Assembly (NCBI GenBank): GCA_964394075.1
Contig: CAYMVI010000002.1
Coordinates: forward strand, 95,234-159,233
Source of the DNA: an uncultured Eubacteriales bacterium
Lineage (GTDB): Bacteria; Bacillota; Clostridia; TANB77; UBA1234
Direction of reading: 5' to 3'
DNA length: 64,000 nucleotides
Shown one piece after another: positions 32,667-52,186 of the stretch; position 1 is the first letter of the stretch, and every line of letters starts with the position of its first letter. Below the pieces are notes generated by a model, which was not told the DNA's origin, ran no database searches, and was given only the letters and a program-made list of their open reading frames with translations. A program made the position numbers and the translations under genes.

Positions 32667-32668
32667 AT

Positions 32669-36086: not shown

Positions 36087-36149
36087 TTTTTCATATTTAC
36101 ATATTAACTCTTTTTATACCCCAAAAACTGCAAACTTTTTGCAAGCTTT

Positions 36150-36554: not shown

Positions 36555-36580
36555 TTACAACACTTCTTTCGTATAGTATT

Positions 36581-36946: not shown

Positions 36947-36948
36947 TT

Positions 36949-37197
36949 CTATCTCACCACTTTCACATATTTTAAATTGTTCTCTTTCGCAACTAAATAA
37001 GATGTATACCCATCTATTAAGTAATTGTTTTCATCTAAAATTATGTCAGCATATAATGTTCCATCATATCTGTACATTAATCTTCTCACCCACATTTTTT
37101 CGTGTCTTGGCGGGTGAGCTTTAAAGCATTTGTATATGTGTATGTTTTCTATATTTTCATATCCAAATAGTTTCATTATCTTATCTAACAGCTTCAT
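36949..37197 (-). CDS. Hypothetical phage protein (82 aa).
   Basis: ORF with 4-nt start/stop overlap to neighbours. Confidence 0.3.
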   Translation of the reverse strand: MKLLDKIMKLFGYENIENIHIYKCFKAHPPRHEKMWVRRLMYRYDGTLYADIILDENNYLIDGYTSYLVAKENNLKYVKVVR

Positions 37198-37610
37198 TTT
37201 TTACCTTCTTTCATGCTATTGTATATAACTCTATTTCTTGCACCTTCTTTTCTTTTTTCTAATACTGTTTGTGCAATAAGCGGTAATTGTTCCTCTGTTA
37301 TTATTTCAGCATCTATCGCACTTTGTAATAACGAACATAAACCTATTATCAATAGTTCAGGGCTTGATGCTGTAAACATTTGCTCTGAAGATTGCTTTCC
37401 TTTTCTCTTTACAATCGTTATTTCATATTCTGCATCTTTATATTCTTTTTCTATATTATTGAAAATCATATTGTTTCCTTTCAGTAATTCCTGAATATTA
37501 TATGGTTCTGTATCTTCCCATTTTATAAATTGGAATAGATGCGTAAACACATCAAAACCTTGAGCACAGCTACCACCGCCAAACTTTTTCTGCTTTAAAT
37601 GGTTTTTCAA
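37194..37610 (-). CDS. Hypothetical phage protein (138 aa).
   Basis: ORF in the early/middle operon. Confidence 0.3.
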   Translation of the reverse strand: MKNHLKQKKFGGGSCAQGFDVFTHLFQFIKWEDTEPYNIQELLKGNNMIFNNIEKEYKDAEYEITIVKRKGKQSSEQMFTASSPELLIIGLCSLLQSAIDAEIITEEQLPLIAQTVLEKRKEGARNRVIYNSMKEGKK

Positions 37611-37881
37611 GGTATAGAAAAATCCTTTTACTTTTATCTCTAGCTATCCATTTATACTCTTTTGGTACATTCTCAAGTATTACTCTTTCTGCTTCGTTTA
37701 GTTTAGGGTTTTCTTTGTGTTCTGCTTTCAGCCAACAAGCATTACACTTATCGCACGTTGTATCTGTGTTGCAACAATCTTCGCATTCTTCTCTGATATA
37801 TTCACTTAAATCGAGTATTCTTCCTAACTCTTCATCACTCATATTTTGCATCTTTTTCATTAGCCATTCTCTATTTGTCAT
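37570..37881 (-). CDS. Cys-rich hypothetical phage protein (103 aa).
   Basis: CEDCCNTDTTCDKCNACW cluster. Confidence 0.3.
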   Translation of the reverse strand: MTNREWLMKKMQNMSDEELGRILDLSEYIREECEDCCNTDTTCDKCNACWLKAEHKENPKLNEAERVILENVPKEYKWIARDKSKRIFLYLEKPFKAEKVWRW

Positions 37882-38207
37882 TCCAAAAAGCCTCCTTTCG
37901 TGCCAAAAACCGACAAGTTATATTCTTCTATATCTGCTCTGTCTATGTCATACCATATAGCGTGTATCACAAAATTTTCGCCCTCAATATTTAAGTCTTT
38001 ACTATCTTCATAAGCCAAACCATATTGACTTAAAAATGGTTGTATCTCGTTTACAACTTCTTGCCATAACTCTTTATGTTCTAATATATATTTGCAAACA
38101 TTTAACAAAGAATGTGGTTCTGTTTCTTCTGCCGTTATTCTAATAAAGTCATTCAATTTATCGCTTTTAACTTTATCTATAAAATTACTTACATTTAACC
38201 CATTCAT
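37878..38207 (-). CDS. Hypothetical phage protein (109 aa).
   Basis: ORF with 4-nt overlap. Confidence 0.3.
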   Translation of the reverse strand: MNGLNVSNFIDKVKSDKLNDFIRITAEETEPHSLLNVCKYILEHKELWQEVVNEIQPFLSQYGLAYEDSKDLNIEGENFVIHAIWYDIDRADIEEYNLSVFGTKGGFLE

Positions 38208-38340
38208 TGTTTGTCACTCCTCTTTCCAATAATACTTACACTCTTTACCCTCTTCATAAAAATCAGCTACACTATATTGGCAACCTAAGTTCTTAGGTCT
38301 TTTGCTTATTATCCTTTTGCAATCTTTGTTTTTACATTTC

Positions 38341-38736
38341 TTACTGTTGACACACCACGTTATATCGTACATTGTTTGTCACCTCATTTTTACTATTGTA
38401 ATTGCAGGTATTTCTATTCTTTCTTCTGTGAAACAACCGTCCCTTAGGATAGTCATAAAAATGTCCTACAGTTCTATGTACGGGAATTTCAATATGATTA
38501 TTGTCTCTCGCCTCTGTTGTTCCAAATTCTTTTAGTATGTTCATAATCCACTCTATTAGTTTTTTATTTTCGTTCATTGTATTATCGATTATTCTATTCA
38601 GATCGTTAACTCTTTTTTCTAATCCTCGACATTTTGTTTCTCTTTCGGTTAGTGCTTCACTATATCTTGCTAGTTCCTTATTAAGTTCTGCAATCTTCTT
38701 TTTATTGAATAAATCTATTTTTTTTATTTTAGGCAT
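38341..38736 (-). CDS. Hypothetical coiled-coil phage protein (131 aa).
   Basis: ORF. RBS GGAGGAATTAATAATG. Confidence 0.3.
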   Translation of the reverse strand: MPKIKKIDLFNKKKIAELNKELARYSEALTERETKCRGLEKRVNDLNRIIDNTMNENKKLIEWIMNILKEFGTTEARDNNHIEIPVHRTVGHFYDYPKGRLFHRRKNRNTCNYNSKNEVTNNVRYNVVCQQ

Positions 38737-38748
38737 TATTAATTCCTC

Positions 38749-39450
38749 CTAAATATCTGAAATATCAATGTTATATTTTTGAGCCACCTTCTTAAAATTC
38801 CCTTTTCCATAGTCTTCATAATTCTTAAATTCAACTAATAATTCATTATCTTCTAATACCTTTAGCCATGATTTTACGACTTCGTGCATTAAATTTGCAG
38901 AGATTCCCTTTTCCGCTTCTGCCTTTTCAAGTCCAAATCTAACATCTTCTTTTAATTGATTTATAACATTTTCTTTTGTCCATTCTTTTGGTGTGCCCCA
39001 CTCGTTGCCTTCGCTTGCCATATATCCTATCGTTTTTCCTTGTTCTTCCGTTAAGAAATCACAAAACCTTATTCCAAATCTGTCATCTAAAAATGTTTCA
39101 TATTCTTTATAATTATCTAATATTTCTTTTATACTTTTCATACTATTTATTCTCCTCGTATAATATTCAATTACACATCCATAACACGCATCGTACATGT
39201 CAGCATAGCAATCACATTCTTCTTTTTCAGGACTTCTTACTTTTCTGCATATATCTTCATCTAGTTTATTTTCTGCTATATCTTTTGCCATTAACTCAAT
39301 TATTTTTTCTTGTTTTTTATATTTGCTTGTTAGTTTTTTAATGCTTTTTATTGGCACTTCTTCATAATATGAGCTTTTTTCTAGCGGATCTGTTACTGCT
39401 TCATAGTCTTTTATAAATTCTTCCAGTATTCTTATATATGCTTCACTCAT
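38749..39450 (-). CDS. Hypothetical phage protein (233 aa) with a Cys cluster.
   Basis: ORF. CDCYADMYDACYGC motif. Confidence 0.35.
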   Translation of the reverse strand: MSEAYIRILEEFIKDYEAVTDPLEKSSYYEEVPIKSIKKLTSKYKKQEKIIELMAKDIAENKLDEDICRKVRSPEKEECDCYADMYDACYGCVIEYYTRRINSMKSIKEILDNYKEYETFLDDRFGIRFCDFLTEEQGKTIGYMASEGNEWGTPKEWTKENVINQLKEDVRFGLEKAEAEKGISANLMHEVVKSWLKVLEDNELLVEFKNYEDYGKGNFKKVAQKYNIDISDI

Positions 39451-39661
39451 TTAATTGTCCTCCTATCAATTCTGGATTATCATGTATATTTCCAATAATT
39501 TCTCCATAAGTTTCTAGCCCTTGATAAGTACTTCTATGCCACCTTGTGTGTTTGTCTTTTTTCTTATCGTAAGGCTTATCCAAAAAACTAAATTCTACTT
39601 TCCCATATTTAACTAATACAATTCTGCTCCACTTGTCATTGTTGCATGTTTTTCTTAACAA
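39443..39661 (-). CDS. Hypothetical phage protein (72 aa).
   Basis: ORF with 8-nt overlap. Confidence 0.25.
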   Translation of the reverse strand: MLRKTCNNDKWSRIVLVKYGKVEFSFLDKPYDKKKDKHTRWHRSTYQGLETYGEIIGNIHDNPELIGGQLNE

Positions 39662-39874
39662 TATATCTCCCTCGTAAATTTCTGTTCCGTTCTTATCATA
39701 TTGTCCGTGTGGATTGTCCTATTGTTTCTTCTAGCACTTCCATATAAAACCCTGTACGAGCTACAATTTGGTAATGGTTTAACATGTTAGTTAAACTTCC
39801 ATATACCCAATCACCGCATTTAGTTTTCCCTCTGAATTTAATCTCTCTCATTCATTCACCTTCATATTACTCTC

Positions 39875-40504
39875 CTAATAAATAAATCTTTTCTTTTTGG
39901 CTATCTCACAAAATCTATTTATCCCACCAACTTCAATAATTCTCAAAAACACTTCTATTAAGGCTTGAGTATCTGGATGAAATATCCTCTCGTGTTTGTG
40001 TGCGTTATAATATTGCATTGGTTCAGGATATGGTTTGTTTTCATCCACTTTTTGCTTTGAATATACTATTCCTGCACCTAACCAATCACATATCATTTCC
40101 ACTACATACTCATACGGGATTTTTATTGGAGTGTTCTTATAAGTTCCAATATTATCTATCCAATATTCCCAATGATGTGGATTATGCCCTTTGTGATGTT
40201 GCCACGCTAACGAATATCCCTTTTCTGATTTTTCAGCATCTATTGGGCTTTTGTTGCCTTGAAAATGTCTGGCACTACTTGCAAACTCCGTGATTCCATA
40301 CTTGCTCAAATCATGTAATAACCCTCTTTTATATATTCCACATTTAAAACAATATTTCATAACATATAATTTGTGTTTTGTTATGGTAATAAAGTGTTTT
40401 ATATATTTATTCATTTCACTTTCCTTCTTTCTTTTCAAAAAGTCTTCTACCCTCTTCAGTAGTAACATAAACATTCGTGAATAATATCGGCACAGATACA
40501 TCAT
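39875..40504 (-). CDS. Hypothetical phage protein (209 aa, His-rich motif HHKGHNPHHWEYW).
   Basis: ORF. Possible metal-binding motifs. Family not recognised. Confidence 0.3.
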   Translation of the reverse strand: MMYLCRYYSRMFMLLLKRVEDFLKRKKESEMNKYIKHFITITKHKLYVMKYCFKCGIYKRGLLHDLSKYGITEFASSARHFQGNKSPIDAEKSEKGYSLAWQHHKGHNPHHWEYWIDNIGTYKNTPIKIPYEYVVEMICDWLGAGIVYSKQKVDENKPYPEPMQYYNAHKHERIFHPDTQALIEVFLRIIEVGGINRFCEIAKKKRFIY

Positions 40505-40790
40505 ATAATCCGTTATAATAATCTTCGTAATGAGTACCGACTTTTCTTATTTCCATGTAACCTTTTTGTAATAGAGATTTATAGGCTTTCTGAACTTGAT
40601 ATTTTGAAGTGTTGAGTAAATTTGCCATCATTGTTACAGAAATCCAGTCTAGCCAGCTTCCACAACTATAGTGTGTTCCTTGTTCTTCAACATATTTTTC
40701 TAGCACTTCCATTTCTGTTACTTTGCGATACTTTTTCACGTTATCCCTCCACAAAATATTTTCCTTTTTCAAATTGCTCTTTTGTGACAA
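40416..40790 (-). CDS. Hypothetical phage protein (124 aa).
   Basis: ORF. Confidence 0.3.
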   Translation of the reverse strand: MSQKSNLKKENILWRDNVKKYRKVTEMEVLEKYVEEQGTHYSCGSWLDWISVTMMANLLNTSKYQVQKAYKSLLQKGYMEIRKVGTHYEDYYNGLYDVSVPILFTNVYVTTEEGRRLFEKKEGK

Positions 40791-41082
40791 TTTCCATTAT
40801 TTCATTCTTGTAATAATAGCCCCTCATACAATCAACTTTTAAAACCTTTTCTCCATCTTTTTCAAAAACATCCCAAACATAGTGGCCATTCACATAGTCT
40901 CCACATTCTATAATGTCAATAGGCTCTTCCCCAAACTTAACAATATCTTTTCTCTTGCATTCACATTCAAATTTTTGTACATCGTTTGCTTGTAAGAAAT
41001 ATGTTCTGCCATATATTCCAGTTACTTTTCTGATTCTTCCGTTTACAAGTCTGACATAATATCCTTCTTTAATTTCAGCCAT
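40741..41082 (-). CDS. Hypothetical phage protein (113 aa).
   Basis: ORF. Confidence 0.3.
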   Translation of the reverse strand: MAEIKEGYYVRLVNGRIRKVTGIYGRTYFLQANDVQKFECECKRKDIVKFGEEPIDIIECGDYVNGHYVWDVFEKDGEKVLKVDCMRGYYYKNEIMEIVTKEQFEKGKYFVEG

Positions 41083-41440
41083 TGTTTTGTTCTCCTTTTA
41101 ACAGGTCTTCAAGTGTATCAATTATAAATATATTGCCTGCATCATAATTTATTTTTAAGTATTCTATCTCTTCTTTTATCTTGCTTTCCCAGTAAACACG
41201 TTCTCTCTTTGTGCCTACTATTAAGCCAACTTCATAGGTTCTTTTTGCTTTTAGTGTCTTTCCTGCACTTCTTGTACCATAGAATACAACCTCTTCTTCT
41301 GGCATGTCTAAAACTTTTAATACTGTGTCTAATGCTAAATGTTCTTGGTTATGGTCAAAGCCACATTCATTAACTTTCTTGTAGTATTCACATCTTTCTT
41401 TTAATATTTCTATTGCCTCTTTTAATTCCATCTGCATCAC
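41075..41440 (-). CDS. Hypothetical phage protein (121 aa).
   Basis: ORF. Confidence 0.3.
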   Translation of the reverse strand: MMQMELKEAIEILKERCEYYKKVNECGFDHNQEHLALDTVLKVLDMPEEEVVFYGTRSAGKTLKAKRTYEVGLIVGTKRERVYWESKIKEEIEYLKINYDAGNIFIIDTLEDLLKGEQNNG

Positions 41441-41801
41441 TTCCTTGCAATAATTCTTCTAATACTTCTATTTGTGCTAAAGCCTTGTTATCATGTTGAA
41501 AGCAAGTCTCCACTTTCAAACAATCTGCAATGATTAACTCTCTTACCCTCTTTTTTATTTTGTCTATCGGCACATACCTATTCTCAAATTCTTTTTTTGT
41601 CATATTTTGAGAGCACTTTAATTTCTTATTTATTATTTGCAATTTTTCTAACTCTTGTGTCACTGTAAGCATTGCTTGCGTGTCTTCACTATCTATATAG
41701 CACCCATCACAATGCTCTTCATCGCAGTTCCCGCAACGGCCTATTAACCCGTTTAGAATTTTTGTCGCTTCTTTTAGTTCCATCTCATCACCTAAATCCA
41801 A
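41388..41801 (-). CDS. Cys-rich hypothetical phage protein (137 aa).
   Basis: RCGNCDEEHCDGCY motif. Confidence 0.3.
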   Translation of the reverse strand: MDLGDEMELKEATKILNGLIGRCGNCDEEHCDGCYIDSEDTQAMLTVTQELEKLQIINKKLKCSQNMTKKEFENRYVPIDKIKKRVRELIIADCLKVETCFQHDNKALAQIEVLEELLQGSDADGIKRGNRNIKRKM

Positions 41802-42322
41802 TAAATTTTCTCTTTTAAGGCATCAATGTTGTAACAAATCCAGCAACAACCTGTGTTGAAACTGTTTGATTTACCTATAAATTTGATTCTCTTTTTGAAT
41901 ATCAAAATGCTAAGTTTGTCTATGTATTTTTCATAAATATCTGCTCTCTTCTCAGTTTCTAAAGTAGATAAAGGCAGTAACAAGCAAAATGCTTTTATCT
42001 TCCCACTGTCTATTAGCTCAAATGTTCTTTTTATGATTTCATTTTGTTGCCCAAATGGTGGATTACTTATTAGCAAATCGCAGTTTTGTGGTGGTTCTGT
42101 TTTAAAGAAATCGTTTCCGCAGTCATCAAATATATGTGTTGCTTTATATTGTAGTTTTAGTTCATCGGCCTTTAGTTTGAATTGACTGTCGTAATTGTTA
42201 AACGGAAACCAGATAGAGTTATAGCTTTGAATATCTATTAAGTCATATATGTTTTCTACTACATATCTGGGTGTTGCTACATGGTCTTTGCTAGTTTGTT
42301 TCTCTATTTCGTACGGGTTCAT
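41792..42322 (-). CDS. Orphan DNA N6-adenine methyltransferase (small phage T1/Dam-type).
   Basis: 176 aa. Motif IV DLLISNPPFG (NPPF). No adjacent restriction endonuclease. Confidence 0.7.
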   Translation of the reverse strand: MNPYEIEKQTSKDHVATPRYVVENIYDLIDIQSYNSIWFPFNNYDSQFKLKADELKLQYKATHIFDDCGNDFFKTEPPQNCDLLISNPPFGQQNEIIKRTFELIDSGKIKAFCLLLPLSTLETEKRADIYEKYIDKLSILIFKKRIKFIGKSNSFNTGCCWICYNIDALKEKIYWI

Positions 42323-42497
42323 TATCTACCTCCAAATTTAAAATCATATTTGCTCTTAAATTATCTACACTTCTTATTTGTTTTGTTATTGAAGTTCTTT
42401 CTGGATCATCTGCTAAAAATGCCTTTAGAAGTACAACTCTGTATTTTGTTAATAAATGATTCAACTGAATGTATTCCTCTTCATTCATTAGCAACAC
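42291..42497 (-). CDS. Hypothetical phage protein (68 aa).
   Basis: ORF. Confidence 0.25.
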   Translation of the reverse strand: MLLMNEEEYIQLNHLLTKYRVVLLKAFLADDPERTSITKQIRSVDNLRANMILNLEVDNEPVRNRETN

Positions 42498-42500
42498 CTC

Positions 42501-42821
42501 TTATTTCAGTTCTATTTTCATCTTTTTAATTTGCTCTTTTATTTCTTCATAATCACTTCTGGTTAGATGTCCTGTTCTGAACGCATCTATGTTGTTGAAT
42601 ATGTGATACATGATTTCTCTTAGTTTCTTTTGACCAGACTTTAAGTTATCCCAATTCAACTTATAATAGAGCGTATATGCTGTCATGTAAAACACGCATT
42701 CTTCTACATGTCTCATTCCATCTTTGAAGCCCTTTTCGTATAAGTCGTCACTATACTTGTCCATTATTGATTTCTTACTGTAGCCTTGGCGTTCTAATCT
42801 TCTACGTTCGCTTCTATTCAT
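42501..42821 (-). CDS. Hypothetical phage protein (106 aa).
   Basis: ORF. Confidence 0.3.
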   Translation of the reverse strand: MNRSERRRLERQGYSKKSIMDKYSDDLYEKGFKDGMRHVEECVFYMTAYTLYYKLNWDNLKSGQKKLREIMYHIFNNIDAFRTGHLTRSDYEEIKEQIKKMKIELK

Positions 42822-42822
42822 A

Positions 42823-43296
42823 TTAGACCTCCCTGATATATTGCTTGTATTTATACATGAACATTTTCTTTTTCATGTTATAGACTGGTGTTTTTATGCC
42901 TTTTACATCTTCAATTACTAGCTTTCCATTTTCGTAGTATGTAAAATCTGCGATGTATTTTATTGCTTTAATCTTTTCTCCATTTATTTCAAACGCATCT
43001 TGCAAAACAAAAGGAACTTGTAACTGAAGGTCTGTAATCACACCAGCCTTTTCTAACATCTTTAACTCTGTGTATCTACTTGCTTCTTTTTCTGAATCGA
43101 ATTTGATGTCATCTACAACGCATTTGTTTGCTCTGTATTTTGATATTTTCTTTTCCTCTTGTTGTTTATCAGTTGCCACTAAAGAATTGATTTTAGGCAC
43201 AACCTCTTTAATTCTTGCATTATGTTTTTTGACATCTTCCATAGTCCACTCTTCAAAGCCACTCATATTACAGCCTCCAGTTTTAATTGCTCCCAA
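42823..43296 (-). CDS. DUF1064-like phage protein (putative nuclease/resolvase-like).
   Basis: Segments YRANKCVVDDIKFDSEKEASRY and DLQLQVPFVL resemble the DUF1064 family common next to phage replication genes. Probable start is the internal Met at 43266. Confidence 0.35.
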   Translation of the reverse strand: MGAIKTGGCNMSGFEEWTMEDVKKHNARIKEVVPKINSLVATDKQQEEKKISKYRANKCVVDDIKFDSEKEASRYTELKMLEKAGVITDLQLQVPFVLQDAFEINGEKIKAIKYIADFTYYENGKLVIEDVKGIKTPVYNMKKKMFMYKYKQYIREV

Positions 43297-43709
43297 CCTG
43301 TGCAGTCATCTATAAGTTCATACACAGATACTGTTTTGCCTGTATATTTACACTTCTTTTTGTCAGTCACTTTCACTAGATGATATCTTTTCTCTAGTTC
43401 AGTTAACCTTGGAGCTGACCAGTTGCGTTCCGTTGAGCTAGCATAACCAAGCTTGTACATTTCAACAGCCACTTCTTTAGCGGTCATTGCTCCATTAGCC
43501 TTTAATATTTCTCGAATCTGAGAATATCTTTTAACTTTATCCACAGATTCGTTAGATTCTCTTCTACACTCATTGCTTATCATTTGCACACCACGCTCCT
43601 TATAGTCTGTGAGTAAAACAGAATTGGTCTTCGTATGGGATTTGCTCCCACCCTTCTTGTTCTTTTGCCCAAGACAAAGCTTTAATTTTTCCACCAAAAG
43701 TAGACACAT
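43263..43709 (-). CDS. Winged-helix-like hypothetical protein. Probable true start is the internal ATG at 43583.
   Basis: The longest ORF overlaps the replisome-organizer gene by 110 nt. The internal Met (MISNECRR...) reduces the overlap to 18 nt. Confidence 0.35.
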   Translation of the reverse strand: MCLLLVEKLKLCLGQKNKKGGSKSHTKTNSVLLTDYKERGVQMISNECRRESNESVDKVKRYSQIREILKANGAMTAKEVAVEMYKLGYASSTERNWSAPRLTELEKRYHLVKVTDKKKCKYTGKTVSVYELIDDCTGWEQLKLEAVI

Positions 43710-44229
43710 CGAATTTGTCTCGTGCGTTTTTTAATAATGAATTATAAAGATCATTAGTTTTATTGTTTATAGTTTTATTTATGTTGTCATTTTGTCTGTC
43801 ATTTTGTTTGCCATTTTGTATGTCATTTTGTATGTCATTTTGTTTTGACTCTGCAATTTGACTGTCATTTTGTGGAGTCAAATTAATTTGTTTGTCATTT
43901 TGCAGTGGCAATTCGTTTTGTCTGTCATTTTGCTGAGTCAGCTTTTCATCATACAATTTGACAATCTTATATTCTCCTGCTTGATTGCCTCTGCCTTTTT
44001 TGTACTCGATATATCCTTTTTGGATGAGTTCGTTCCTTACTCTGTCAAATGTTCTATCATCTAAACCAGTCTTAATTACTAATTTTGAATTAGGTATCAC
44101 AAATCTTTCTCTCCAAAATAGCTTATTGTTTATATCCAGCAAATGGTGGTATAAGCAAAATGCTTTTATAGAGATTGGATGTTGTTCTAGTAATTCATAA
44201 AAAGAATTTAACTGTTCGATATAGTTCAT
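43600..44229 (-). CDS. Phage replisome organizer (DnaD-like N-terminal domain) with an internal iteron-encoded QND-repeat region.
   Basis: N-terminus MNYIEQLNSFYELLEQHP...FCLYHHLLDINNKLFW...RVRNELIQKGYIEYKKGRGN is typical of phage_rep_org_N. The C-terminal half is coded by 9-10-bp tandem repeats. Confidence 0.65.
   Translation of the reverse strand: MNYIEQLNSFYELLEQHPISIKAFCLYHHLLDINNKLFWRERFVIPNSKLVIKTGLDDRTFDRVRNELIQKGYIEYKKGRGNQAGEYKIVKLYDEKLTQQNDRQNELPLQNDKQINLTPQNDSQIAESKQNDIQNDIQNGKQNDRQNDNINKTINNKTNDLYNSLLKNARDKFDVSTFGGKIKALSWAKEQEGWEQIPYEDQFCFTHRL
43786..43935. repeat. Iteron array (at least 9 copies of TGTCATTTTG-like 9-10-bp units) inside the replisome-organizer gene. Putative phage origin of replication.
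   Basis: Sequence gtcattttgtctgtcattttgtttgccattttgtatgtcattttgtatgtcattttg...gtcattttgcagtggcaattcgttttgtctgtcattttg. Confidence 0.6.
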
Positions 44230-44243
44230 TTTCTCACCCGCTT

Positions 44244-44864
44244 TCAGTCGTATTTAAAACCATTCCACTTATGGAACACTAAATTTTCTTCGTTCCAAGA
44301 ATCCCCGTATATTGATTGCAGGTATTCTCTTATTGTTTTTCTTGTTTCTTCTAATTTTGAGCCATTGTCGTATTCATGGTGACACTCTGGACAACCTGTT
44401 ACGATATTTTCTTCTATTCCTAGTCCGCCATTGTTGCGTGATATGTAGTGCATGTTAGGTTCTCCTTTTCTTACACCACACACCACGCAAATGCCATTGT
44501 CTCTTTCAGCTACTTTAGCTCTTACTTCTGGCGATATATCTGTTAATTTAGATCTAGTAGATTTAAACTTTGGTTTGCTTCCATATACTTTTACTAGAAG
44601 TTCTTTGTTATATTCCGTTACATTCTTGTTATCTTTTATCTTCATCATGAAGTCGTTTTTATTTAGAAAAATCTCTTTTTTATCACACCAGAATGTTTTC
44701 TTTCCATAGCTATCTACTAAAAATTGTTCTCTATCTTTACTTTCGCCTTGAATGTGTACCTTTTGCATCTTGTATTCAGGTTCATCGTTCCAGTCGTTAC
44801 ATGATTTGTTGTAAAGCAATCTATATGCTTTTATTTTATTGTTATATTTAATGTATTCTTTCAT
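44244..44864 (-). CDS. HNH endonuclease (C-terminal HNH).
   Basis: CVVCG...GCPECHHEYDNG is an HNH zinc-finger motif. Confidence 0.65.
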   Translation of the reverse strand: MKEYIKYNNKIKAYRLLYNKSCNDWNDEPEYKMQKVHIQGESKDREQFLVDSYGKKTFWCDKKEIFLNKNDFMMKIKDNKNVTEYNKELLVKVYGSKPKFKSTRSKLTDISPEVRAKVAERDNGICVVCGVRKGEPNMHYISRNNGGLGIEENIVTGCPECHHEYDNGSKLEETRKTIREYLQSIYGDSWNEENLVFHKWNGFKYD

Positions 44865-45407
44865 CTACATCACCTCTACTGAATATGTAGTGCCGTTTCT
44901 TTCAAATGTGTTTTGACCTTTCTTTAACATTGCACTAATAAATCCTTGATTGTTGCCAAAAAACATTCCAGCTTGAGACATGCTTCTGAATTTTGCTTTT
45001 GCTCCCGTTTTTGTGTTAGTAATTGCAATGTGTTTCTGAGTTGTTTGTAAATTTGTTTCAAAAGCGTGGCGAATATTATCCTCTAACGTAAGCCACTCTA
45101 AATTTTCAACATTATTATTAAAACGATTACCATCTTTATGATTCACTGTCATATTAGTATCTATTAAATCCTCGAGAAATGTTGTTGCTACTAATCTACA
45201 CACAAGAAAACTTTTTGGTTTACCATCTTTCCATAAATCAACTCTATATCCCGTTTTTATATTTCGACTTTTAAATTGTAATATTCTATCTTTCCAATGC
45301 CTTGTCCCATGTCTTTCAGTGCAAGATATTTTATTGTGCGTTCTTACTCTTCCTTTATTGCTTACTTGATAACCAGGATAGCCTCTAATATCTCTCCATT
45401 CTTCCAT
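44865..45407 (-). CDS. HNH homing endonuclease (NUMOD4 plus HNH_3).
   Basis: EEWRDIRGYPGYQVSNKGRVR is the NUMOD4 motif. VNHKDGNRFNNNVENLEWLTLEDN is the HNH_3 motif. Confidence 0.7.
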   Translation of the reverse strand: MEEWRDIRGYPGYQVSNKGRVRTHNKISCTERHGTRHWKDRILQFKSRNIKTGYRVDLWKDGKPKSFLVCRLVATTFLEDLIDTNMTVNHKDGNRFNNNVENLEWLTLEDNIRHAFETNLQTTQKHIAITNTKTGAKAKFRSMSQAGMFFGNNQGFISAMLKKGQNTFERNGTTYSVEVM

Positions 45408-45416
45408 ATATACCTC

Positions 45417-45833
45417 CTAAAAAGGTAAGTCCAATCCATCATCTTCAGTCACTAGATTAAATGTATTTGCTTCTTCAGAATTAAATGGAGCTGATGATGT
45501 TGTTTCTCCTTTTTTCTTTGTATCTGCAAAATAAACTTCTTCAGCAATAACTTCTGTTACATATACTTTCTTCCCATCTTTGTCATCATAGTTTCTTGTT
45601 TGTAATCTTCCAATAACACCTACTTGTTGACCTTTGTTGAAGTACTTGCTACAAAACTCTCCAGTTTTATCCCAAGCTACTATATTAAAAAAGTCTGCTT
45701 GTCTTTCTTCACCTTGCTTTGCAAATCTTCTATTTACCGCTAATCCAAAACTGGCTACCATCGTGTTATTTCCACTTGTGTATCTTACTTCTGGATCTCT
45801 AGTTAAACGCCCCATTAATATAACTTTATTCAT
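45417..45833 (-). CDS. ssb: Single-stranded DNA-binding protein.
   Basis: OB-fold N-terminus MNKVILMGRLTRDPEVRYT. Acidic C-terminal tip DDGLDLPF. Confidence 0.85.
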   Translation of the reverse strand: MNKVILMGRLTRDPEVRYTSGNNTMVASFGLAVNRRFAKQGEERQADFFNIVAWDKTGEFCSKYFNKGQQVGVIGRLQTRNYDDKDGKKVYVTEVIAEEVYFADTKKKGETTSSAPFNSEEANTFNLVTEDDGLDLPF

Positions 45834-45848
45834 CTTTTTTCTCCTTTT

Positions 45849-46568
45849 TTATTTAATAACTATAAGGCTTTTAATGATTTCTTCTGTGTCTCTCCATTGT
45901 TTTTCTAATTCATCTGCTAGTTTTTGTTCACCACAAAAAGTAATCATTACATAGTGACCTTCTTCGTATTCTTTTATTGGAAATGCAAGTTTTTTCTTGC
46001 CTAGCTTTTCCGCTTTAACAACAGTTCCTTCTGCATTTAATTGAGCAACAAATTTATTGGTTAATGTTTCTAGAGTTTCTTCAGATTGAGTGGGATCAAT
46101 AATCATAATCGCTTCATATTGTTTAACTTTTTCTTTATGTTCATTTGATTCTGTTTCTTTATCCTTTTTTTCTTTTTCTTCTTTTTCAACAATTTCTAAA
46201 AGTTTTTTAATAGCTTCATCTACAAATTTATCCATTTCTGTTTCTGTTTTTTCTTCATAAGAACTTGAACCCTTATTAATAGTTTCTGTTTCATAAAAAT
46301 GTTGTGCTAATTTTATTTCTGGGTGCTCTTCTAAATATATCTGTGTCATTTGTTTTAACATGTCATACATTGTTAATTTCATGATTATATTGCTTTTTGA
46401 AGTTTCAACTACTATATGAGGTTCTGTTTGTTCTCCGCTTTGTTTTATTGCAGGCACAATTATTTCGACTCTAACATAATGACCACTTTTTAAAATTTCA
46501 TTTCTTCTTTGTTCTCCTTTTTTACTTACTTTATTTTTTTGCATTTTCAATACCTTCCTATAATTCAT
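45849..46568 (-). CDS. Fusion protein: N-terminal domain of unknown function plus C-terminal ribosomal protein bS6 (RpsF)-like domain.
   Basis: The last ~90 aa, YEAIMIIDPTQSEETLETLTNKFVAQLNAEGTVVKAEKLGKKKLAFPIKEYEEGHYVMITFC...EIIKSLIV, align position-by-position with bacterial S6 (B. subtilis MRKYEVMYIIRPNIDEE...GKRRLAYEI..GFY...). Located immediately upstream of ssb, as in the host rpsF-ssb-rpsR operon. Confidence 0.6.
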   Translation of the reverse strand: MNYRKVLKMQKNKVSKKGEQRRNEILKSGHYVRVEIIVPAIKQSGEQTEPHIVVETSKSNIIMKLTMYDMLKQMTQIYLEEHPEIKLAQHFYETETINKGSSSYEEKTETEMDKFVDEAIKKLLEIVEKEEKEKKDKETESNEHKEKVKQYEAIMIIDPTQSEETLETLTNKFVAQLNAEGTVVKAEKLGKKKLAFPIKEYEEGHYVMITFCGEQKLADELEKQWRDTEEIIKSLIVIK

Positions 46569-47037
46569 ATTTGATAGCTTCTAATTTCTTTTTCAAGGCG
46601 TTTTGCTTGCTATCTATACTTTCATACGCCTTTTTAAATCTAAATAATCTCGCACCAAGCTGAGCTAGTTCGACAAGTTCTTTCTTTACGAACTCTTTCG
46701 CCATTGCCTCAAAATAACTCATCGCTGGAGCTTTATCTGTATTTGTTTCTTGCCATTGTTTTCTTTGCATATAAACTTGTTTATTTTCTGCGATGCTTGT
46801 TTCTGTTTTTAATACATCGTATTGCTCTTGTAGTCTTGCTATCATTTCTCCTAATAAGAAGTTCATATTTGCATATATTTCAATGTTTTTAGCTATGTTA
46901 AATCCTGTGTCAGCATCTTCTATTATTTGTTCTTGCAATTTTGTATATGTATCTGCTATCTGTTGATTAGTTGCTTGTGATATTACAAAAGGATTAAATA
47001 AATATAGTTTCTTAAAATCTTCTCCCATTGTTTGCAC
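46558..47037 (-). CDS. Hypothetical phage protein (159 aa, coiled coil).
   Basis: ORF between the ERF and bS6-fusion genes. Confidence 0.3.
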   Translation of the reverse strand: MQTMGEDFKKLYLFNPFVISQATNQQIADTYTKLQEQIIEDADTGFNIAKNIEIYANMNFLLGEMIARLQEQYDVLKTETSIAENKQVYMQRKQWQETNTDKAPAMSYFEAMAKEFVKKELVELAQLGARLFRFKKAYESIDSKQNALKKKLEAIKYEL

Positions 47038-47637
47038 CTACTTTACATCTGGCATTCCTGAAATTTTTTTCATAATCGCTATTTTTCGTGCAACTGTTAA
47101 TTCTTTAGTCGAGCTAACTTTGTAATTATGTTGTAATTGAGCTTCAACATCTATTCCTTTTTTCTCCATGATGTCATGTAGGATTTTGGCTTGTTCTTCT
47201 GATAACAATTCATCGCTTTTTTGTGATGTCTCTGGAGCTCCTTCATCTGGATCATCTTGTGTTGGAATACAGAACACTTGAAATAGTGCATATTTCATAG
47301 CTATTGCCATTGCTTTATTGGTTGCCTTATCTCCGCTATCCATACCTTCACCTACTGTTATAGCTTCTACAAACGAACCATCTTCTGCGTAAAATGTATA
47401 TTTAACAGTACATATTGAATAAAGTAATTGAACTCCGTTTTTGGTTATTCTTTCTTCTCTTTTTTGTTCTATTACTTGCGGAACTATAAATACTTTGTGC
47501 TTAGCTAATAGTGGTTGAAATGCGTTCATGACATCATCAATACCTCTATACTTAAACCCTTGTTGTTTGTTTTCTTTATCCTTACTGATTGCTGGTACTT
47601 CCTGCATAATGTTACTTATTGCTTGATAGATGTGCAT
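47038..47637 (-). CDS. erf: ERF-family single-strand annealing protein (recombinase).
   Basis: IYQAISNIMQEVPAISKDKENKQQGFKYRGIDDVMNAFQPLL is typical of the ERF superfamily N-terminus. Confidence 0.65.
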   Translation of the reverse strand: MHIYQAISNIMQEVPAISKDKENKQQGFKYRGIDDVMNAFQPLLAKHKVFIVPQVIEQKREERITKNGVQLLYSICTVKYTFYAEDGSFVEAITVGEGMDSGDKATNKAMAIAMKYALFQVFCIPTQDDPDEGAPETSQKSDELLSEEQAKILHDIMEKKGIDVEAQLQHNYKVSSTKELTVARKIAIMKKISGMPDVK

Positions 47638-48458
47638 AACATACCTCCTAATTCATGAGTTATTTTTGCAGTTTCTAAATATTTAAGAACATTGGCTAGT
47701 TCCTCATCTGTTACATTTAATATAAGTGCCACTTTCTTTTTTTGTGGAACTAATTCAAACTCTGTCTTTGGCTCAAATTCTATTTGTTCTACTTCTTCTA
47801 TTGTTGGCACATGTTCTACTTGTTTTTTTATTTCTTGTTTTGCCTTTTCTTCTTCAATAGCCTTAAATCTATCGTTTACATTCGTAATTGCCTTACTTAC
47901 ATTTAGTGATTGCTTGTATTCAACCAAGATTTCCGCTTTGTGTTCTTGTGTTTCAATGAGATTTAAGTCATCGGCAATCTTATCTATGAATGCTTTCGCT
48001 TGTTCTTTTAAACTCTTCATGCTAGCTGATAATGTTACATTTATGTTTGCGTTCTCAAATGTAACAAAATCAATATTCTTTTCACTTAGATATTCATTGA
48101 AGTATTTCTTTACTTCTTCTTTTTTCTTTTCTTTTAATTCATTCTCAACTGAATCTATTTTGCTTTTCAAATCTGCATCAGCTTTCTTGAACTTATCGCC
48201 AATGTATATTTGGTAAGCAGTTTCAAACTCTTCATAAGGCTTCATTATTTCTGCTTTAACGTGTTTTCTCTTGTCTTCAAAATCTTTAGCTTCCTTATTT
48301 AAACTTGCTCTTACTTCTTTGATTGTCTTTACATTCTCTTCTGTGCAAATTAAAGACATTGCTTCATTTACCTTCTTGTCGATTTCTTCGCTTGCTAGTT
48401 TTAATTGCTCTTTTATAACTGGTAATTGCTCAATTACGATTAGTTCGTTATTATTCAT
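47616..48458 (-). CDS. DUF1351-like phage protein (commonly ERF/SSB-associated).
   Basis: 280 aa. Coiled-coil-rich. Conserved synteny upstream of erf in Bacillota phages. Confidence 0.4.
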   Translation of the reverse strand: MNNNELIVIEQLPVIKEQLKLASEEIDKKVNEAMSLICTEENVKTIKEVRASLNKEAKDFEDKRKHVKAEIMKPYEEFETAYQIYIGDKFKKADADLKSKIDSVENELKEKKKEEVKKYFNEYLSEKNIDFVTFENANINVTLSASMKSLKEQAKAFIDKIADDLNLIETQEHKAEILVEYKQSLNVSKAITNVNDRFKAIEEEKAKQEIKKQVEHVPTIEEVEQIEFEPKTEFELVPQKKKVALILNVTDEELANVLKYLETAKITHELGGMLCTSIKQ

Positions 48459-48667
48459 CCTCTATTCCCCTTTCAATGTTCTTAATTCTTCATTAAGTTC
48501 GGCCAATCTTTTATAATCACTGGATTCTAAATGGTCAGCCATCAATATAAAAAATCTCTCTTTTTCTATTTCTTCTATTCTTTCTTCCACATTTACACCT
48601 TGCTTTCTGCTTGGTTTTTGTGCTAAAATATAAAAAAATACTTTTATATGTGGTTATTTTTTTGGGA

Positions 48668-48997
48668 CTAAACATTTTCGTTGGTAGCGGTCGTGTTTAG
48701 TTCTTTTTTATATTTATTAGCATTTATAAGTCTGTTTACCTTTTCTTCTGCATTCTGAATTTTTATCACATCAGTGACAAGCTCAGTTTTTAAATCTTCT
48801 ACAGCTTTATAAGCTTCTTCATACCTTCCTGCTTTTAATTCGTTTGATATATAACCTAATTCATTAATTAGTGTTTCTTGTGTTTCAATATGTGCATCTA
48901 CTACTTTTTTAAACATATTTTTCTCACCTCTCTTTTGTACAAATCTTACGATTCTTGATTGTTTACTTTCGATATAAAACATCTTGATTCTAAACAA
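48668..48997 (-). CDS. Hypothetical early phage protein (109 aa).
   Basis: ORF. Confidence 0.3.
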   Translation of the reverse strand: MFRIKMFYIESKQSRIVRFVQKRGEKNMFKKVVDAHIETQETLINELGYISNELKAGRYEEAYKAVEDLKTELVTDVIKIQNAEEKVNRLINANKYKKELNTTATNENV

Positions 48998-49115
48998 ATA
49001 CTTCTGTCATTCTCAGATTGTTTCTTGAACTTCTAAATACAAACATAATCTTGATACGATTATTGATAAAAAACTCTTTTAAATTGAATAAAACATACAT
49101 CTTTTTCGTTGGTTT

Positions 49116-49433
49116 TTATCTAATAACTTTTTTTCTCCTTGGTGTGTTGAAATAATCTCTAAAAGCACCTATTTCAACTACTTTTTCTTTCCCATAATCA
49201 CAACTTGGAAAGTCTGGTCTATTAAATAATTCCTGTACTGTTTTTCTACTCCAAGGTAATATTTTCTTTTCAACGATTTCATCTACCGTTAAAAAATGAA
49301 GCCCTTTTGTTGTTTTTTCTAGTTCTTGTATGGTTTTAATAAATTCCTTTAGATTTTCAAGTTGTGGTTCAAGGTCGGTATTCACTTTTAATTCCAAATG
49401 TCTTCCTCCCTTCATTTGTGTGTCGTGTCGCAT
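49116..49433 (-). CDS. HTH_17/excisionase-like DNA-binding protein.
   Basis: LTVDEIVEKKILPWSRKTVQELFNRPDFPSCDYGKEKVVEIGAFRDYF is a MerR/Xis-type HTH. Confidence 0.5.
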   Translation of the reverse strand: MRHDTQMKGGRHLELKVNTDLEPQLENLKEFIKTIQELEKTTKGLHFLTVDEIVEKKILPWSRKTVQELFNRPDFPSCDYGKEKVVEIGAFRDYFNTPRRKKVIR

Positions 49434-49470
49434 TATTTTTTAATCATTGTTTTCAATGTTTTCACTTCCT

Positions 49471-49686
49471 TTACCGTTTAACTGTAATTTCATTGCAAAA
49501 AAAATCAATGTCGTTGTAGCTTATATTGAAATGTTTTTCAATTCTTTTTAATACAGGAACATCTGGAAAAGTTATTCCTTTTTCATAATTAGCCCACGTT
49601 TCAACACTTACGCCTATAGCTTTTGCGGTTTGTTCTTGTGTCTCATTTGCGTTAACCCTTATTGCTCTTAACGAATATTTTGGCAT
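49471..49686 (-). CDS. cro: Cro-like XRE-family HTH regulator.
   Basis: 71 aa. ETQEQTAKAIGVSVETWANYEKG is an XRE HTH. Divergent from the CI-like repressor. Confidence 0.65.
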   Translation of the reverse strand: MPKYSLRAIRVNANETQEQTAKAIGVSVETWANYEKGITFPDVPVLKRIEKHFNISYNDIDFFCNEITVKR

Positions 49687-49689
49687 TCC

Positions 49690-49815
49690 ACAATCACCTC
49701 CATTACTGTTTTACTGTAATTATATTATTACGGTTTAACTATAAAGTCAATAGTAAAACTGTAATTTTTTTAATTTAGCATTGAATAAATTACGGAATAG
49801 CTGTATAATAGCTTT
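49690..49815. promoter_or_regulatory. Divergent PR/PRM-type promoters with repeated TTACGG/CTGTAA operator half-sites (cI-cro switch region).
   Basis: Plus strand TTGAAT-18-TATAAT (49781-49810) for cI. Minus strand TTGACT-17-TAATAT for cro. Half-sites ACTGTAATTATATTATTACGGT (49714-49735), AAACTGTAAT (49755-49765) and TTACGGAATAGCTGTAT (49791-49807). Confidence 0.5.
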
Positions 49816-49831
49816 TGCGGGGGGTGAATTG

Positions 49832-50458
49832 ATGAGTGATTTAGGTAATAAAGAAATATTAGCTAAAAATTTAGAATATTATATGAAGATTAACAGTAAA
49901 GACAGAAATGATGTTGCAAGAGATTTGGATATTCCTTATACCACTTTAACTAGCTGGCTTAAAGCTGAATTTTATCCAAGAATTGATAGAATCCAACTAT
50001 TGGCTAACTACTTTGGAATACAAAAATCAGATTTGGTTGAAGAAAAAAAGGAAGTATTATTTGAATCAAAGCAAGTGTTTCCACTACTTGGTACTGTAAA
50101 AGCAGGATATAACTATTTAGCACAAGAAAATTTTATTGGATATATCTGTATGGATAAAGAAGTTTCAGATCCTGAAAATTACTTTGCATTAAAGGTCACT
50201 GGTGATAGTATGCAACCTATACTTTATGATAATGATATTGTTATAGTTCACCAGCAAAATGATATTGAAAACGGACAAATTGGGATCGTTGTAATAGATG
50301 GAGAAGAAGCAACTGTAAAGAAAATAAACAAATATAATGACCATATTGATTTAATTGCTTTTAACTCTTATTATCCACCAAAAAGATTAGATATAGACTC
50401 TAATTTTAAAATTATAGGTAAAGTTGTAGAAGCCAGAATTAGCAAGATATTTGAATAA
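49832..50458 (+). CDS. CI-like phage repressor (XRE HTH plus S24 LexA-type peptidase).
   Basis: RBS GGGGGTGA then ATG at 49832. N-terminal HTH. C-terminal VTGDSMQPIL...K Ser-Lys dyad autopeptidase motif. Confidence 0.8.
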   Translation: MSDLGNKEILAKNLEYYMKINSKDRNDVARDLDIPYTTLTSWLKAEFYPRIDRIQLLANYFGIQKSDLVEEKKEVLFESKQVFPLLGTVKAGYNYLAQENFIGYICMDKEVSDPENYFALKVTGDSMQPILYDNDIVIVHQQNDIENGQIGIVVIDGEEATVKKINKYNDHIDLIAFNSYYPPKRLDIDSNFKIIGKVVEARISKIFE

Positions 50459-50476
50459 ATTACAAGGAGAAAAATT

Positions 50477-50680
50477 ATGAAAAAAATTTTAAAAATATTA
50501 TGGTGGTTAGTATTTATGCCAATATTAGCAGTTGCGTTAGCTGTTTTTGTAACATTTGCTATATTACACCATTGTCAGTATAGTAATATAACTATAAGTA
50601 CTGTTACTACATTATTTGTTAATCCAGCTGTATTTTTTGTTTCTATACTTTATGGGTTGAAAAAAATTAAGAAAAAATAA
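50477..50680 (+). CDS. Small two-TM membrane protein between cI and int. Candidate superinfection-exclusion/moron protein.
   Basis: 67 aa. Two hydrophobic helices. RBS AGGAGA. Confidence 0.4.
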   Translation: MKKILKILWWLVFMPILAVALAVFVTFAILHHCQYSNITISTVTTLFVNPAVFFVSILYGLKKIKKK

Positions 50681-50685
50681 AAAGG

Positions 50686-50806
50686 ATAATGTGTTTCAAG
50701 TTTGCGACACGACACACATTATCCACCAAGGTAAACACTCCGAAAAGTGGTTACAACACATATTTTATATGTTGTACCTCCACTTTTCAAGTGTTTATTG
50801 TAATAA
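50686..50806. promoter_or_regulatory. Long imperfect inverted repeats/hairpins upstream of int.
   Basis: GGATAATGTGT..ACACATTATCC (50687-50728). Also AAACACT..AAAAGTGG..ACAACATA mirrored by TATGTTGT..CCACTTTT..AGTGTTT (50740-50800). Confidence 0.4.
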
Positions 50807-50830
50807 ATATTTGAAATGGAGGTTTTTTAT

Positions 50831-51997
50831 ATGGGGAAAAGAGGTAATGGCGAGGGTTCTATCTATTACCATGAAAAGCTTAAACGATGGGTTGGCCAAT
50901 TTACTGCTGGATATAAAGATGATGGAAAATTAAATAGAAAAACCGTATATGGGAAAACTAGAAAAGAAGTTGCCACAAAAATTAATGAAAAACAAAATGA
51001 ATTGATTAATAACACTTTTGTAGATAAAACAGATGTCAAATTCTACGAACTGGCACAAAAATATATAGATGATAGATATAATTCTAATATTATTACGGCA
51101 ACCACATATTTATCTAACACATATGCGTTAAATCGATTAAAACAAACAAAAATCTATTCTGCAAAAATTCAAGATTTAACAGCCAATTTTATCAATAAAG
51201 AACTTACAAAATTAAAAAAATATTCTGCTTCTGTTATTGAAAAGGAAAAGTTTATAATTTCTAATACATTAGATTTGGCTGTGTTAAATAAATTAATTTA
51301 CACAAATCCTTTTTCTATTAAAAAATCAATTATAATTCCCAAAAGCGATGTGCAAACTCGTGAAGTTGATGCTTTCACAACTGATGAACAAAAATCACTT
51401 ATAGAAGAACTAAATTCAAAAGATTACAAATATAAGGATATTATATTAATAGCTCTTTATAGCGGTATGCGTATCGGCGAAATACTTGCATTGGAAAAAG
51501 ATGATGTTGATTTAGAAGAAGGGATTATTCATGTTAAAAGAACGCTAACTAAAAACGAAAGTCAGAAATTTATCGTTGGCTCAAAAACAAAAACTTATGC
51601 AGGCAAAAGAACAGTGCCTATTTTTCCACAAATCAAATGTTTTTTTTACGATATGCCTGAAGGATTATTATTCACCCAAAATGGAAAAATAATAATACCA
51701 CCAGCAATCAACTCAGCCTTTAAAAGAATTTGCAAAAATGCAGGCATTAGATTGGCCAAATACCCTTTACACAGAGGTGGAAAAGTAATACAATTAAATA
51801 CAAGTGAAGCACATACGCACATGCTTAGACATACGTTTGCAACTAGATGTATTGAAGCTGGTATGCAAGCGGTAGTATTACAAAAGATTTTAGGCCACAA
51901 AGATATATCGGTGACATTAAATACATATACATCTATTTTTAATAAATTTAAACAAACGGAGATTGAAAAAGTGACAAATTATTTAGAGACATTTTAA
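50831..51997 (+). CDS. int: Tyrosine-type phage integrase.
   Basis: RBS GGAGG then ATG at 50831 (MGKRGNGEGSIYY...). C-terminal catalytic region HMLRHTFATRCIEAGM...LGHKDISVTLNTYT (R..H..R..Y). Confidence 0.85.
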   Translation: MGKRGNGEGSIYYHEKLKRWVGQFTAGYKDDGKLNRKTVYGKTRKEVATKINEKQNELINNTFVDKTDVKFYELAQKYIDDRYNSNIITATTYLSNTYALNRLKQTKIYSAKIQDLTANFINKELTKLKKYSASVIEKEKFIISNTLDLAVLNKLIYTNPFSIKKSIIIPKSDVQTREVDAFTTDEQKSLIEELNSKDYKYKDIILIALYSGMRIGEILALEKDDVDLEEGIIHVKRTLTKNESQKFIVGSKTKTYAGKRTVPIFPQIKCFFYDMPEGLLFTQNGKIIIPPAINSAFKRICKNAGIRLAKYPLHRGGKVIQLNTSEAHTHMLRHTFATRCIEAGMQAVVLQKILGHKDISVTLNTYTSIFNKFKQTEIEKVTNYLETF

Positions 51998-52005
51998 TAC
52001 AAAAT

Positions 52006-52031
52006 TTACTGCAATATTTACTGCAACGCAA
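52006..52031. repeat. attR core direct repeat.
   Basis: TTTACTGCAATATTTACTGCAACGCA, immediately 3' of int. Confidence 0.6.
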
Positions 52032-52186
52032 AAACTTTTTAAGATATTCTGTATATATTTGAAAAACACAAAAAAGTTTAAATCTCATTAAAACACGCAT
52101 TATATGAGCTTTGAAAGAATTGCAGTATATATACAAAACATTATATTTTTATCATCTCCACCAATCAATCACAAAACAACGATAAA

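Follow-up and report, generated by a model that had tools for sequence, protein, structure and literature searches.

The window analysed here, a 64,000-nucleotide (nt) stretch of contig CAYMVI010000002.1 (positions 95,234 to 159,233, forward strand) from an uncultured Eubacteriales bacterium (assembly GCA_964394075.1), carries a prophage of about 44 kb, whose integration site is the tmRNA gene and whose AT-rich host probably belongs to the Clostridia. In the early region of this prophage, on the reverse strand, lies a gene that is a chimera between a conserved small phage protein and a complete domain of ribosomal protein bS6, the latter forming its C-terminal end, and we regard this architecture as well established. 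The initial annotation had described an S6-like segment behind an unassigned N-terminal part, in a gene immediately ahead of ssb in the replication module of a temperate phage, and our analysis agrees on both the fusion, whose N-terminal part is not ribosomal, and its location. The gene is found 4–6 kb from the integrase and repressor genes and about 12 kb from the terminase gene, between erf and ssb and within att-like repeats, so that its ribosomal-protein domain is encoded by the virus and is not a piece of flanking host DNA.

The open reading frame (45849..46568, reverse strand) encodes 239 amino acids (aa) when counted from its first ATG (46568), a start that would give an 11-nt overlap with the preceding gene. 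The true start is likely the ATG at 46544, which yields a protein of 231 aa, since it has an AGGAAGG Shine-Dalgarno motif 8 nt upstream and since the public gene call (P0001) has this same length. Residues of the fusion are numbered below on the 231-aa form, with residue 1 at 46544. The coding sequence (231 aa plus stop; 45849..46544), which is identical in an independent Logan assembly (L001), comprises three segments, all on the reverse strand: an N-terminal core domain (aa 1–100; 46245..46544), delimited by phmmer relatives, alignment and AlphaFold2 (AF2) modelling; a long lysine/glutamate (K/E)-rich helix followed by a linker (aa 101–140; 46125..46244), delimited by the protein and DNA alignments and by an AF2 helix at 103–134; and the complete bS6 domain (aa 141–231; 45852..46124; 150–237 being the matched residues in the 239-aa numbering), delimited by profile matches and PDB chains. 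This last domain has no start codon of its own, as residue V140 is encoded by GTT and the sole in-frame ATG lies inside the first beta-strand, which implies that S6 is made only as part of the fusion.

The resemblance to ribosomal protein S6 that had been noticed over the last ~90 aa turns out to be that of a genuine and complete bS6. When searched with the Pfam profile Ribosomal_S6 (PF01250), the C-terminus of the fusion scores 75.5 bits (E 3.8e-21) over profile positions 1–89 of 90, far above the gathering score of 27, while the NCBIfam S6 equivalog TIGR00166 matches with 69.6 bits (cutoff 42.9) over positions 1–91 of 95. Moreover, 47 distinct PDB bS6 chains align over chain residues ~2–90 (best E 2e-11), the best matches being those of Acinetobacter and E. 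coli (47 bits), followed by B. subtilis (29.7 bits) and Enterococcus (about 20 bits). The domain keeps the family-core residues (S6 positions Y3, E4, P11, G33, G42, K45, L46, A47, I50, E55, G56, Y58 and V59), retains its basic positions as Lys and stops right behind the last beta-strand, without a C-terminal tail, as in many Bacillota, whose S6 is short (L002, 93 aa). From the gap-poor alignment to solved bS6 chains, we infer a ferredoxin-like beta-alpha-beta-beta-alpha-beta fold. A single-sequence AF2 model of the whole fusion is unreliable (predicted local distance difference test, pLDDT, 36.6), although its predicted elements follow an order (b1, a1, b3, a2, b4) that fits S6. Compared with 120 cellular S6 sequences, a taxonomically biased sample dominated by two clades, the domain shows the changes W41L, R44K, Y48F, R85K and R90I, as well as a 2-residue insertion ahead of G33. 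The entire domain holds one arginine, as expected from the very AT-rich genome. Thermus S6 likewise has a Leu at the position of W41.

The N-terminal part had been described as K/E-rich and unassigned. It does carry a K/E-rich helix and is without a Pfam or PHROG match, but its core belongs to a family. A phmmer search with residues 1–127 against 1.84 billion representatives recovered, besides the fusion itself, six stand-alone relatives: P0002 (130 aa, 60% identity, E 2.4e-37), with which homology runs to about residue 129 of the fusion, and P0003–P0007 (97–103 aa, 33–38% identity; weakest E 6.5e-4, for P0007). The core common to this family, hereafter the pre-ssb family, spans ~100 aa, with E16, I17, L18, R25, E27, P31, P42 and N52 invariant, and is extended by the K/E-rich helix in P0002 and in the window protein. 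Its gene stands directly before ssb in L003/L004 (P0002), L010 (P0003) and L011 (P0006), before erf in L022, and beside other small genes in L023 and L024. Judging from these alignments, the N-terminal ~100 aa of the fusion are a member of a small conserved protein family of the phage early (Erf) region, sharing with the other members both 33–60% identity and the slot between the Erf region and ssb. The difference lies in what follows the core: the six other clusters are all stand-alone proteins of 97–130 aa that end in an acidic or K/E-rich tail, with no further domain.

A model of the N-terminal part based on a 7-sequence alignment is moderately confident (AF2, pLDDT 76.9) and predicts a helix (2–20), a beta-hairpin (23–29/43–49), two helices (53–73 and 76–90) and a long helix (103–134). 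Foldseek searches with this model returned no structural neighbour (E ≥ 0.2 in BFVD, E ≥ 2 in PDB). The pre-ssb family has no match in Pfam, PHROG, NCBIfam or PADLOC, including the PADLOC defence models when queried with the fusion protein or with P0002. We also considered whether the N-domain could itself be S6-like, an idea that came from MAFFT threading its HYVRVEIIVP on the KYELVYIVSP of S6, and rejected it (hhalign probability of 0.2%). The acidic tails of P0003–P0006 (GEITEIPD, GDVLEVED, GDILDVED and EEGEEDE) loosely resemble the SSB tip DDGLDLPF; as pure speculation, they might compete for the binding partners of the SSB tail.

The history of the fusion can be approached by comparison with two sister prophage contigs (L003 and L004; 77–90% nt identity), in which the gene order is matching (DUF1351, Erf, an extra HNH, a 154-aa gene, a 130-aa gene, SSB, HNH, a 206-aa gene) and the ssb gene is orthologous, while S6 is absent. 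Against L003, nt identity of the window amounts to 77% over DUF1351 and erf (blastn), 82% over the 159-aa gene and the N-terminal part of the fusion gene, and 89.9% across 2034 nt from ssb onwards. The blastn homology blocks are interrupted at 46154 and 45846, and a MAFFT alignment of the DNA with the sisters has one clean gap of 329 columns exactly at the window S6. The segment devoid of a counterpart in L003/L004 (45847..46153, reverse strand) is 307 nt long (the 329-nt gap including one repeat copy) and consists of ten linker codons (TESNEHKEKV, aa 131–140), the S6 domain, a TAA stop and a few A's. The inserted S6 begins at its second residue (KQYE..., to be compared with MRHYE in E. coli), and the GC content of the insert (0.30; 0.165 at third codon positions) is equal to that of the neighbouring genes.

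The junctions of this segment are informative. In L003, the 130-aa gene ends with GAG AAG GAG AAA AAA GAT GAA TAA; it contains the ribosome-binding site (RBS) of ssb (AAGGAG), and its stop is overlapped by the ATG of ssb (GATGAATAA). L011, which is only distantly related (35% aa identity), has the same 8-nt overlap, and this identical stop/start arrangement in two so divergent phages indicates that the S6-less overlapping layout is ancestral. In the window, the 22-nt segment that combines the ssb RBS and start with the stop overlap is present twice on the reverse strand. The right copy (AAGGAGAAAAAAGATGAATAAA; 45825..45846) is intact, identical to L003, and serves as the working RBS and start of ssb, whereas the left copy (46154..46175), recognised by codon-register comparison with L003 and L011, is degenerate: it reads AAAGAA in place of AAGGAG, ATA in place of ATG, and GAA (46155–46157, residue E130) in place of the ancestral TAA stop. 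As the window and L003 do not differ over 24 nt that run from upstream of ssb into the gene, the junction must be located upstream of the ssb RBS, and these comparisons indicate that the phage already had its ssb when S6 was inserted in front of it.

Since the ancestral genes overlapped, an insertion sparing both had to duplicate the overlap, and the duplicated 22-nt segment let ssb retain its translation signals. A cassette of ~330 nt with S6 was inserted between the pre-ssb gene and ssb, along with the duplication of the 22-nt RBS/start segment, and the upstream stop codon was lost (GAA), allowing readthrough via a 10-residue linker into S6. We propose, as a plausible path, that these were two successive steps, the insertion coming first. 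The locus captures domain accretion in progress, with a cassette insertion, a duplicated translational-coupling signal and a lost stop codon.

Such a gene might also be produced by a chimeric contig or by a frameshift joining two genes, the more so as it occurs on a single NCBI contig and a single Logan contig. Yet the Logan assembly of run SRR14307646 (L001) is 100% identical to the window over 6167 nt (45777–51943) and covers both fusion junctions, which rules out a one-off assembly chimera; in addition, the reading frame is continuous and has no usable internal start before the S6 domain. An assembly or annotation artefact is therefore hardly credible.

The same comparisons bear on the suggestion, made in the initial annotation, that the phage captured, or co-evolved with, the cellular rpsF-ssb-rpsR operon, S6 and ssb entering together from a host chromosome. 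Admittedly, the window S6 shares with cellular bS6 a complete domain above both cut-offs, an alignment to solved bS6 chains and a position directly upstream of ssb, and the layout of S6 stop, 15-nt spacer with RBS and ssb resembles cellular rpsF-ssb junctions (L002, L012 and L017). However, an ssb about 90% identical at the nt level exists in L003/L004 without S6, its RBS inside the upstream phage gene, and L011 is alike; the junction lies upstream of the ssb RBS; and the S6 is only 31–39% identical to Clostridia S6. Neither an rpsR/bS18 gene nor a second S6 was found within the window, and the Rfam scan detected no rpsF leader or other RNA near the fusion gene. The locus thus differs from a cellular rpsF operon in that its S6 lacks its own start, rpsR and a leader, and in that its ssb is a phage gene predating the insertion. 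That a remnant of the host operon was captured as a unit is very improbable, and this part of the earlier interpretation is not borne out.

Where the S6 domain came from is less straightforward. A word-indexed search of 5.8 billion proteins with the fusion returned the fusion itself as its sole match (one cluster with one member). A profile search collected 7707 S6 proteins, of which the best 120 are only 26–35% identical to the window S6. The highest identity, 39%, is to a cellular S6 of the Clostridia type in L017, while plasmid/chromid S6 peak at 37% and C. difficile S6 reaches 31%. Scans of GTDB genomes, JGI metagenomes, IMG/VR and GenBank phages yielded no closer S6, those of GTDB and the metagenomes giving ordinary cellular rpsF only. 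Compared with cellular bS6, the domain thus stands apart by an identity of 39% at most and by substitutions at W41, R85 and R90. In other words, it is more than 60% different from any sampled S6, whereas its flanks are only 10–20% different from S6-less relatives.

These identities argue against a recent copying of the domain from any sampled host rpsF. At most 39% identity everywhere, combined with 75 bits on the family profile, suggests an S6 lineage with a long history of its own and with horizontal mobility. Most simply, this lineage would have spent a long period under constraint in unsampled genomes, probably those of phages, before it entered the junction.

A few database entries were set aside along the way. 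The IMG/VR match L005 is spurious and not an S6. The GenBank record 'UNVERIFIED Bacteriophage sp.' MT835476.1 (L002, 41380–53679) is bacterial chromosome DNA and not a phage with S6, its content being rpsF-ssb-rpsR, an RNA methyltransferase, a sigma factor and TrkA/TrkH. The other tblastn matches to S6 in GenBank 'phage' records, several of them whole bacterial genome records and others short unannotated fecal scaffolds, were not counted as phage S6 either, MT835476.1 being the one examined in detail.

The same data can be read without any function for S6. Illegitimate recombination could have placed the S6 of an unsampled AT-rich donor in frame, the resulting chimera having no adaptive role and simply not having been purged yet. 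The fusion is indeed a singleton, absent from the closest relatives; the insert, of only ~330 nt, has a small packaging cost; a recent event is expected to look intact with or without function; and the homing-endonuclease genes that crowd the module could promote such events. On the other hand, very large collections contain no donor of more than ~40% identity, even though the flanks have diverged by only 10–20%; the insert amounts to exactly one complete domain (profile 1–89/90), in frame, with the RBS and start of ssb precisely duplicated and preserved; and its composition is indistinguishable from that of neighbouring genes. We consider a neutral and transient origin to be rather unlikely.

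Phage-borne bS6 is not without precedent. It was held at first that viral ribosomal proteins are mainly bS21 and bL12, which is mostly so, but bS6 has already been listed on 5 uncultivated viral contigs (Mizuno et al. 2019, Nat Commun 10:752; PMC6375957). In IMG/VR, we found four viral contigs carrying a stand-alone S6 of 94–154 aa among phage genes (L013, 3989–4405; L014, 3995–4279; L015, 3986–4429; L016, 3992–4456), with profile scores of 79–87 bits and, for several of them, an acidic C-terminal tail. In three of these contigs, which are related, S6 is followed by an AAA+ ATPase, while the S6 of L014 is beside replisome-organiser and HNH-like genes. In the WG(R/K)(R/K)xLAY motif, Leu replaces the cellular Trp in three of the four proteins, and Lys stands in each of them at position 85, where cellular S6 has an invariant Arg. 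The window S6 is 29–36% identical to these phage S6. A special kinship with them, as hinted at by the shared L41 and K85, was examined and dismissed, for pairwise scores favour cellular Clostridia-type S6.

What sets the window apart is the architecture: the known phage bS6 (PMC6375957; L013–L016) stand alone, whereas the window S6 follows a phage segment of 140 aa and belongs to an integrated prophage. The nearest precedents for combining viral ribosomal proteins with non-ribosomal parts are a viral bL9 whose C-terminal domain has been exchanged and, in FBR-MuSV, an eS30-ubiquitin-like fusion (PMC6375957), which concern other proteins and architectures, and neither of which involves bS6 or a recombination-module protein. 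No description of bS6 fused to a phage recombination-module protein was found in the literature searched. The fusion was rightly expected to be unusual: it is a singleton, and the combination is unique in the sequence collections queried, phage bS6 itself being already known and very rare.

Regarding function, the reading that we tentatively favour over the alternatives, by analogy, is that the S6 domain may retain the behaviour of bS6, and that the fusion may enter or dock on the 30S subunit or titrate bS18. In cells, bS6 is an obligate partner of bS18, and its target is the 16S junction primed by uS15 or the part of the rpsF leader that mimics this junction (PMC10931766). The phage domain would likewise pair with host bS18 and recognise the uS15-primed junction of the 16S rRNA platform or the leader mimic of rpsF mRNA. 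Being made early, together with Erf and SSB, the fusion could then either be built into or docked on the 30S, whose platform would display the N-domain of the phage, or act by titrating bS18. This reading follows the precedent of phage ribosomal proteins replacing their cellular copies, since bS21 and bL12 of phages have been demonstrated in ribosomes; incorporation has been demonstrated for these two only and not for bS6 (PMC6375957). It is supported by the strong full-length S6 homology, by the family-core positions kept despite divergence, by the clean indel relative to L003/L004 (flanks of 82% and 90%) and by the existence of stand-alone phage S6 genes. Viral ribosomal-protein genes are under purifying selection (PMC6375957).

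Several points weigh against a ribosomal or bS18-directed role. The fusion is a singleton, whose only second copy is 100% identical, so that no selection test is possible. W41L, R85K and R90I affect positions that are invariant in our (biased) cellular sample, to which Y48F and R44K add. The N-terminal extension of 140 aa might hinder docking beside bS18. Viruses mostly carry loosely bound, exchangeable ribosomal proteins, and bS6 is not among them (PMC6375957). The phage supplies neither a gene for the partner bS18 (in the window) nor an RNA resembling the rpsF leader (in the Rfam scan). Finally, the fold is unconfirmed by modelling (AF2 pLDDT of 36.6).

Some of these observations would also suit a domain that has left the ribosome behind, the RRM-like S6 serving as an extra module of the pre-ssb protein, for single-stranded DNA (ssDNA) or RNA binding or for oligomerisation, within the Erf-SSB machinery. 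The family of its fusion partner sits in Erf/SSB modules, the whole operon handles ssDNA, and another phage S6 (L014) is also in a replication module. Furthermore, W41, R85 and R90 are changed, and the recurrence of W41L and R85K in other phage S6 is compatible with altered constraints. This repurposing nevertheless seems unlikely to us: there is no evidence for S6 domains binding DNA or acting outside the bS6-bS18 pair (PMC10931766), the profile score is as high as that of stand-alone phage S6 (75 vs. 79–87 bits), the R-to-K changes are expected from AT bias alone, and the S6-less relatives function without S6.

Beyond titration or docking as such, the S6 domain might work as an adaptor, purposely placed beside the phage ssb, that captures bS18, either occupying the leader operator of rpsF-ssbA-rpsR or starving it of bS18, or else tethering an Erf/SSB accessory protein to the 30S. 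We hold this to be improbable. If true, capture of the operator would re-tune the synthesis of host SSB and ribosomal proteins while the phage supplies its own SSB, and tethering would physically couple recombination/replication proteins to ribosomes; either mode would be a new form of phage takeover using a ribosomal-protein domain.

Until now, phage bS6 was known from a few metagenomic contigs only and, to our knowledge, had not been the subject of any study. In the present case, the domain is part of an apparently complete prophage of a sequenced bacterium, for which S6-less sister phages are natural controls, and this combination allows a direct test of whether the ribosome or bS18 is reached by a viral S6. 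If the S6 domain is functional, the locus would show a ribosomal protein put to new use as an adaptor, attached to a protein of phage DNA metabolism; otherwise, the locus would be a clean example of a neutral chimeric gene at a phage mosaic junction.

The surroundings of the fusion are those of a temperate phage. The early operon is co-directional and tightly packed on the reverse strand, and comprises, in the order of transcription, DUF1351 (47616–48458), the Erf single-strand annealing protein (47038–47637), both identified by Pfam/PHROG, a gene for a 159-aa protein (46558–47037), the fusion gene, ssb (45417..45833), two endonuclease genes, NUMOD4/HNH_3 (44865–45407) and HNH (44244–44864), both also identified by Pfam/PHROG, and a DnaD-like/replication-initiator gene. 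The SSB protein (138 aa; PF00436, 119 bits; phrog_44, 176 bits) has an acidic tip ending in DLPF, and its gene is separated from the fusion stop by 15 nt that contain its RBS. The module order DUF1351-Erf is also found in L003, L004 and L001. Upstream of this operon are a gene for a Cro-like helix-turn-helix protein, the S24 repressor (49781–50458) and the tyrosine integrase (50816–51997); downstream are the terminase, the portal and an NlpC/P60 lysin.

The approximate extent of the prophage (8183..52164) is given by a 13-nt direct repeat, TCATCTCCACCAA, present at the 3' end of the tmRNA gene (7841–8194), which adjoins the prophage, and again on the far side of the integrase gene (8183–8195 and 52152–52164). 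This repeat is likely the att core. Repeats of the TTTACTGCAA type are found near both prophage ends and may be arm-type sites. The cellular flanking genes include nusA, corA, a sigma factor gene, truA and dnaX. Of these, nusA has its closest counterpart in Acetoanaerobium (70% nt identity), which roughly places the host among Clostridia that resemble the Peptostreptococcales.

Endonuclease genes of the HNH/NUMOD4 type crowd the S6 module, the phage S6 of L014 is likewise flanked by HNH-type genes, and L003 has an extra NUMOD4-HNH gene (L003, 3563–4060) between erf and the 154-aa gene. Endonuclease-driven repair might move small cassettes such as S6 into such junctions. Between the structural and early regions, the prophage carries tRNA genes (30055–30129, 35400–35487, 35591–35665 and 35713–35796). 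ARAGORN calls Met(CAT), Ile(TAT) and an 88-nt 'Phe', and Rfam reports three tRNAs, including the one at 35713–35796 that is absent from ARAGORN. The same phage thus bears other translation-related cargo besides S6. A single open reading frame of 2835 aa (9861–18368, reverse strand), located in the tail- and lysis-proximal portion of the prophage, is unusually large for a temperate phage of ~44 kb. Finally, the host encodes a signal recognition particle (SRP) RNA of the small bacterial type (Rfam RF00169; 62772–62866, reverse strand). Bacilli typically have the long form of SRP RNA, and the small form would fit a Clostridia-like host better than a Bacilli-like one.

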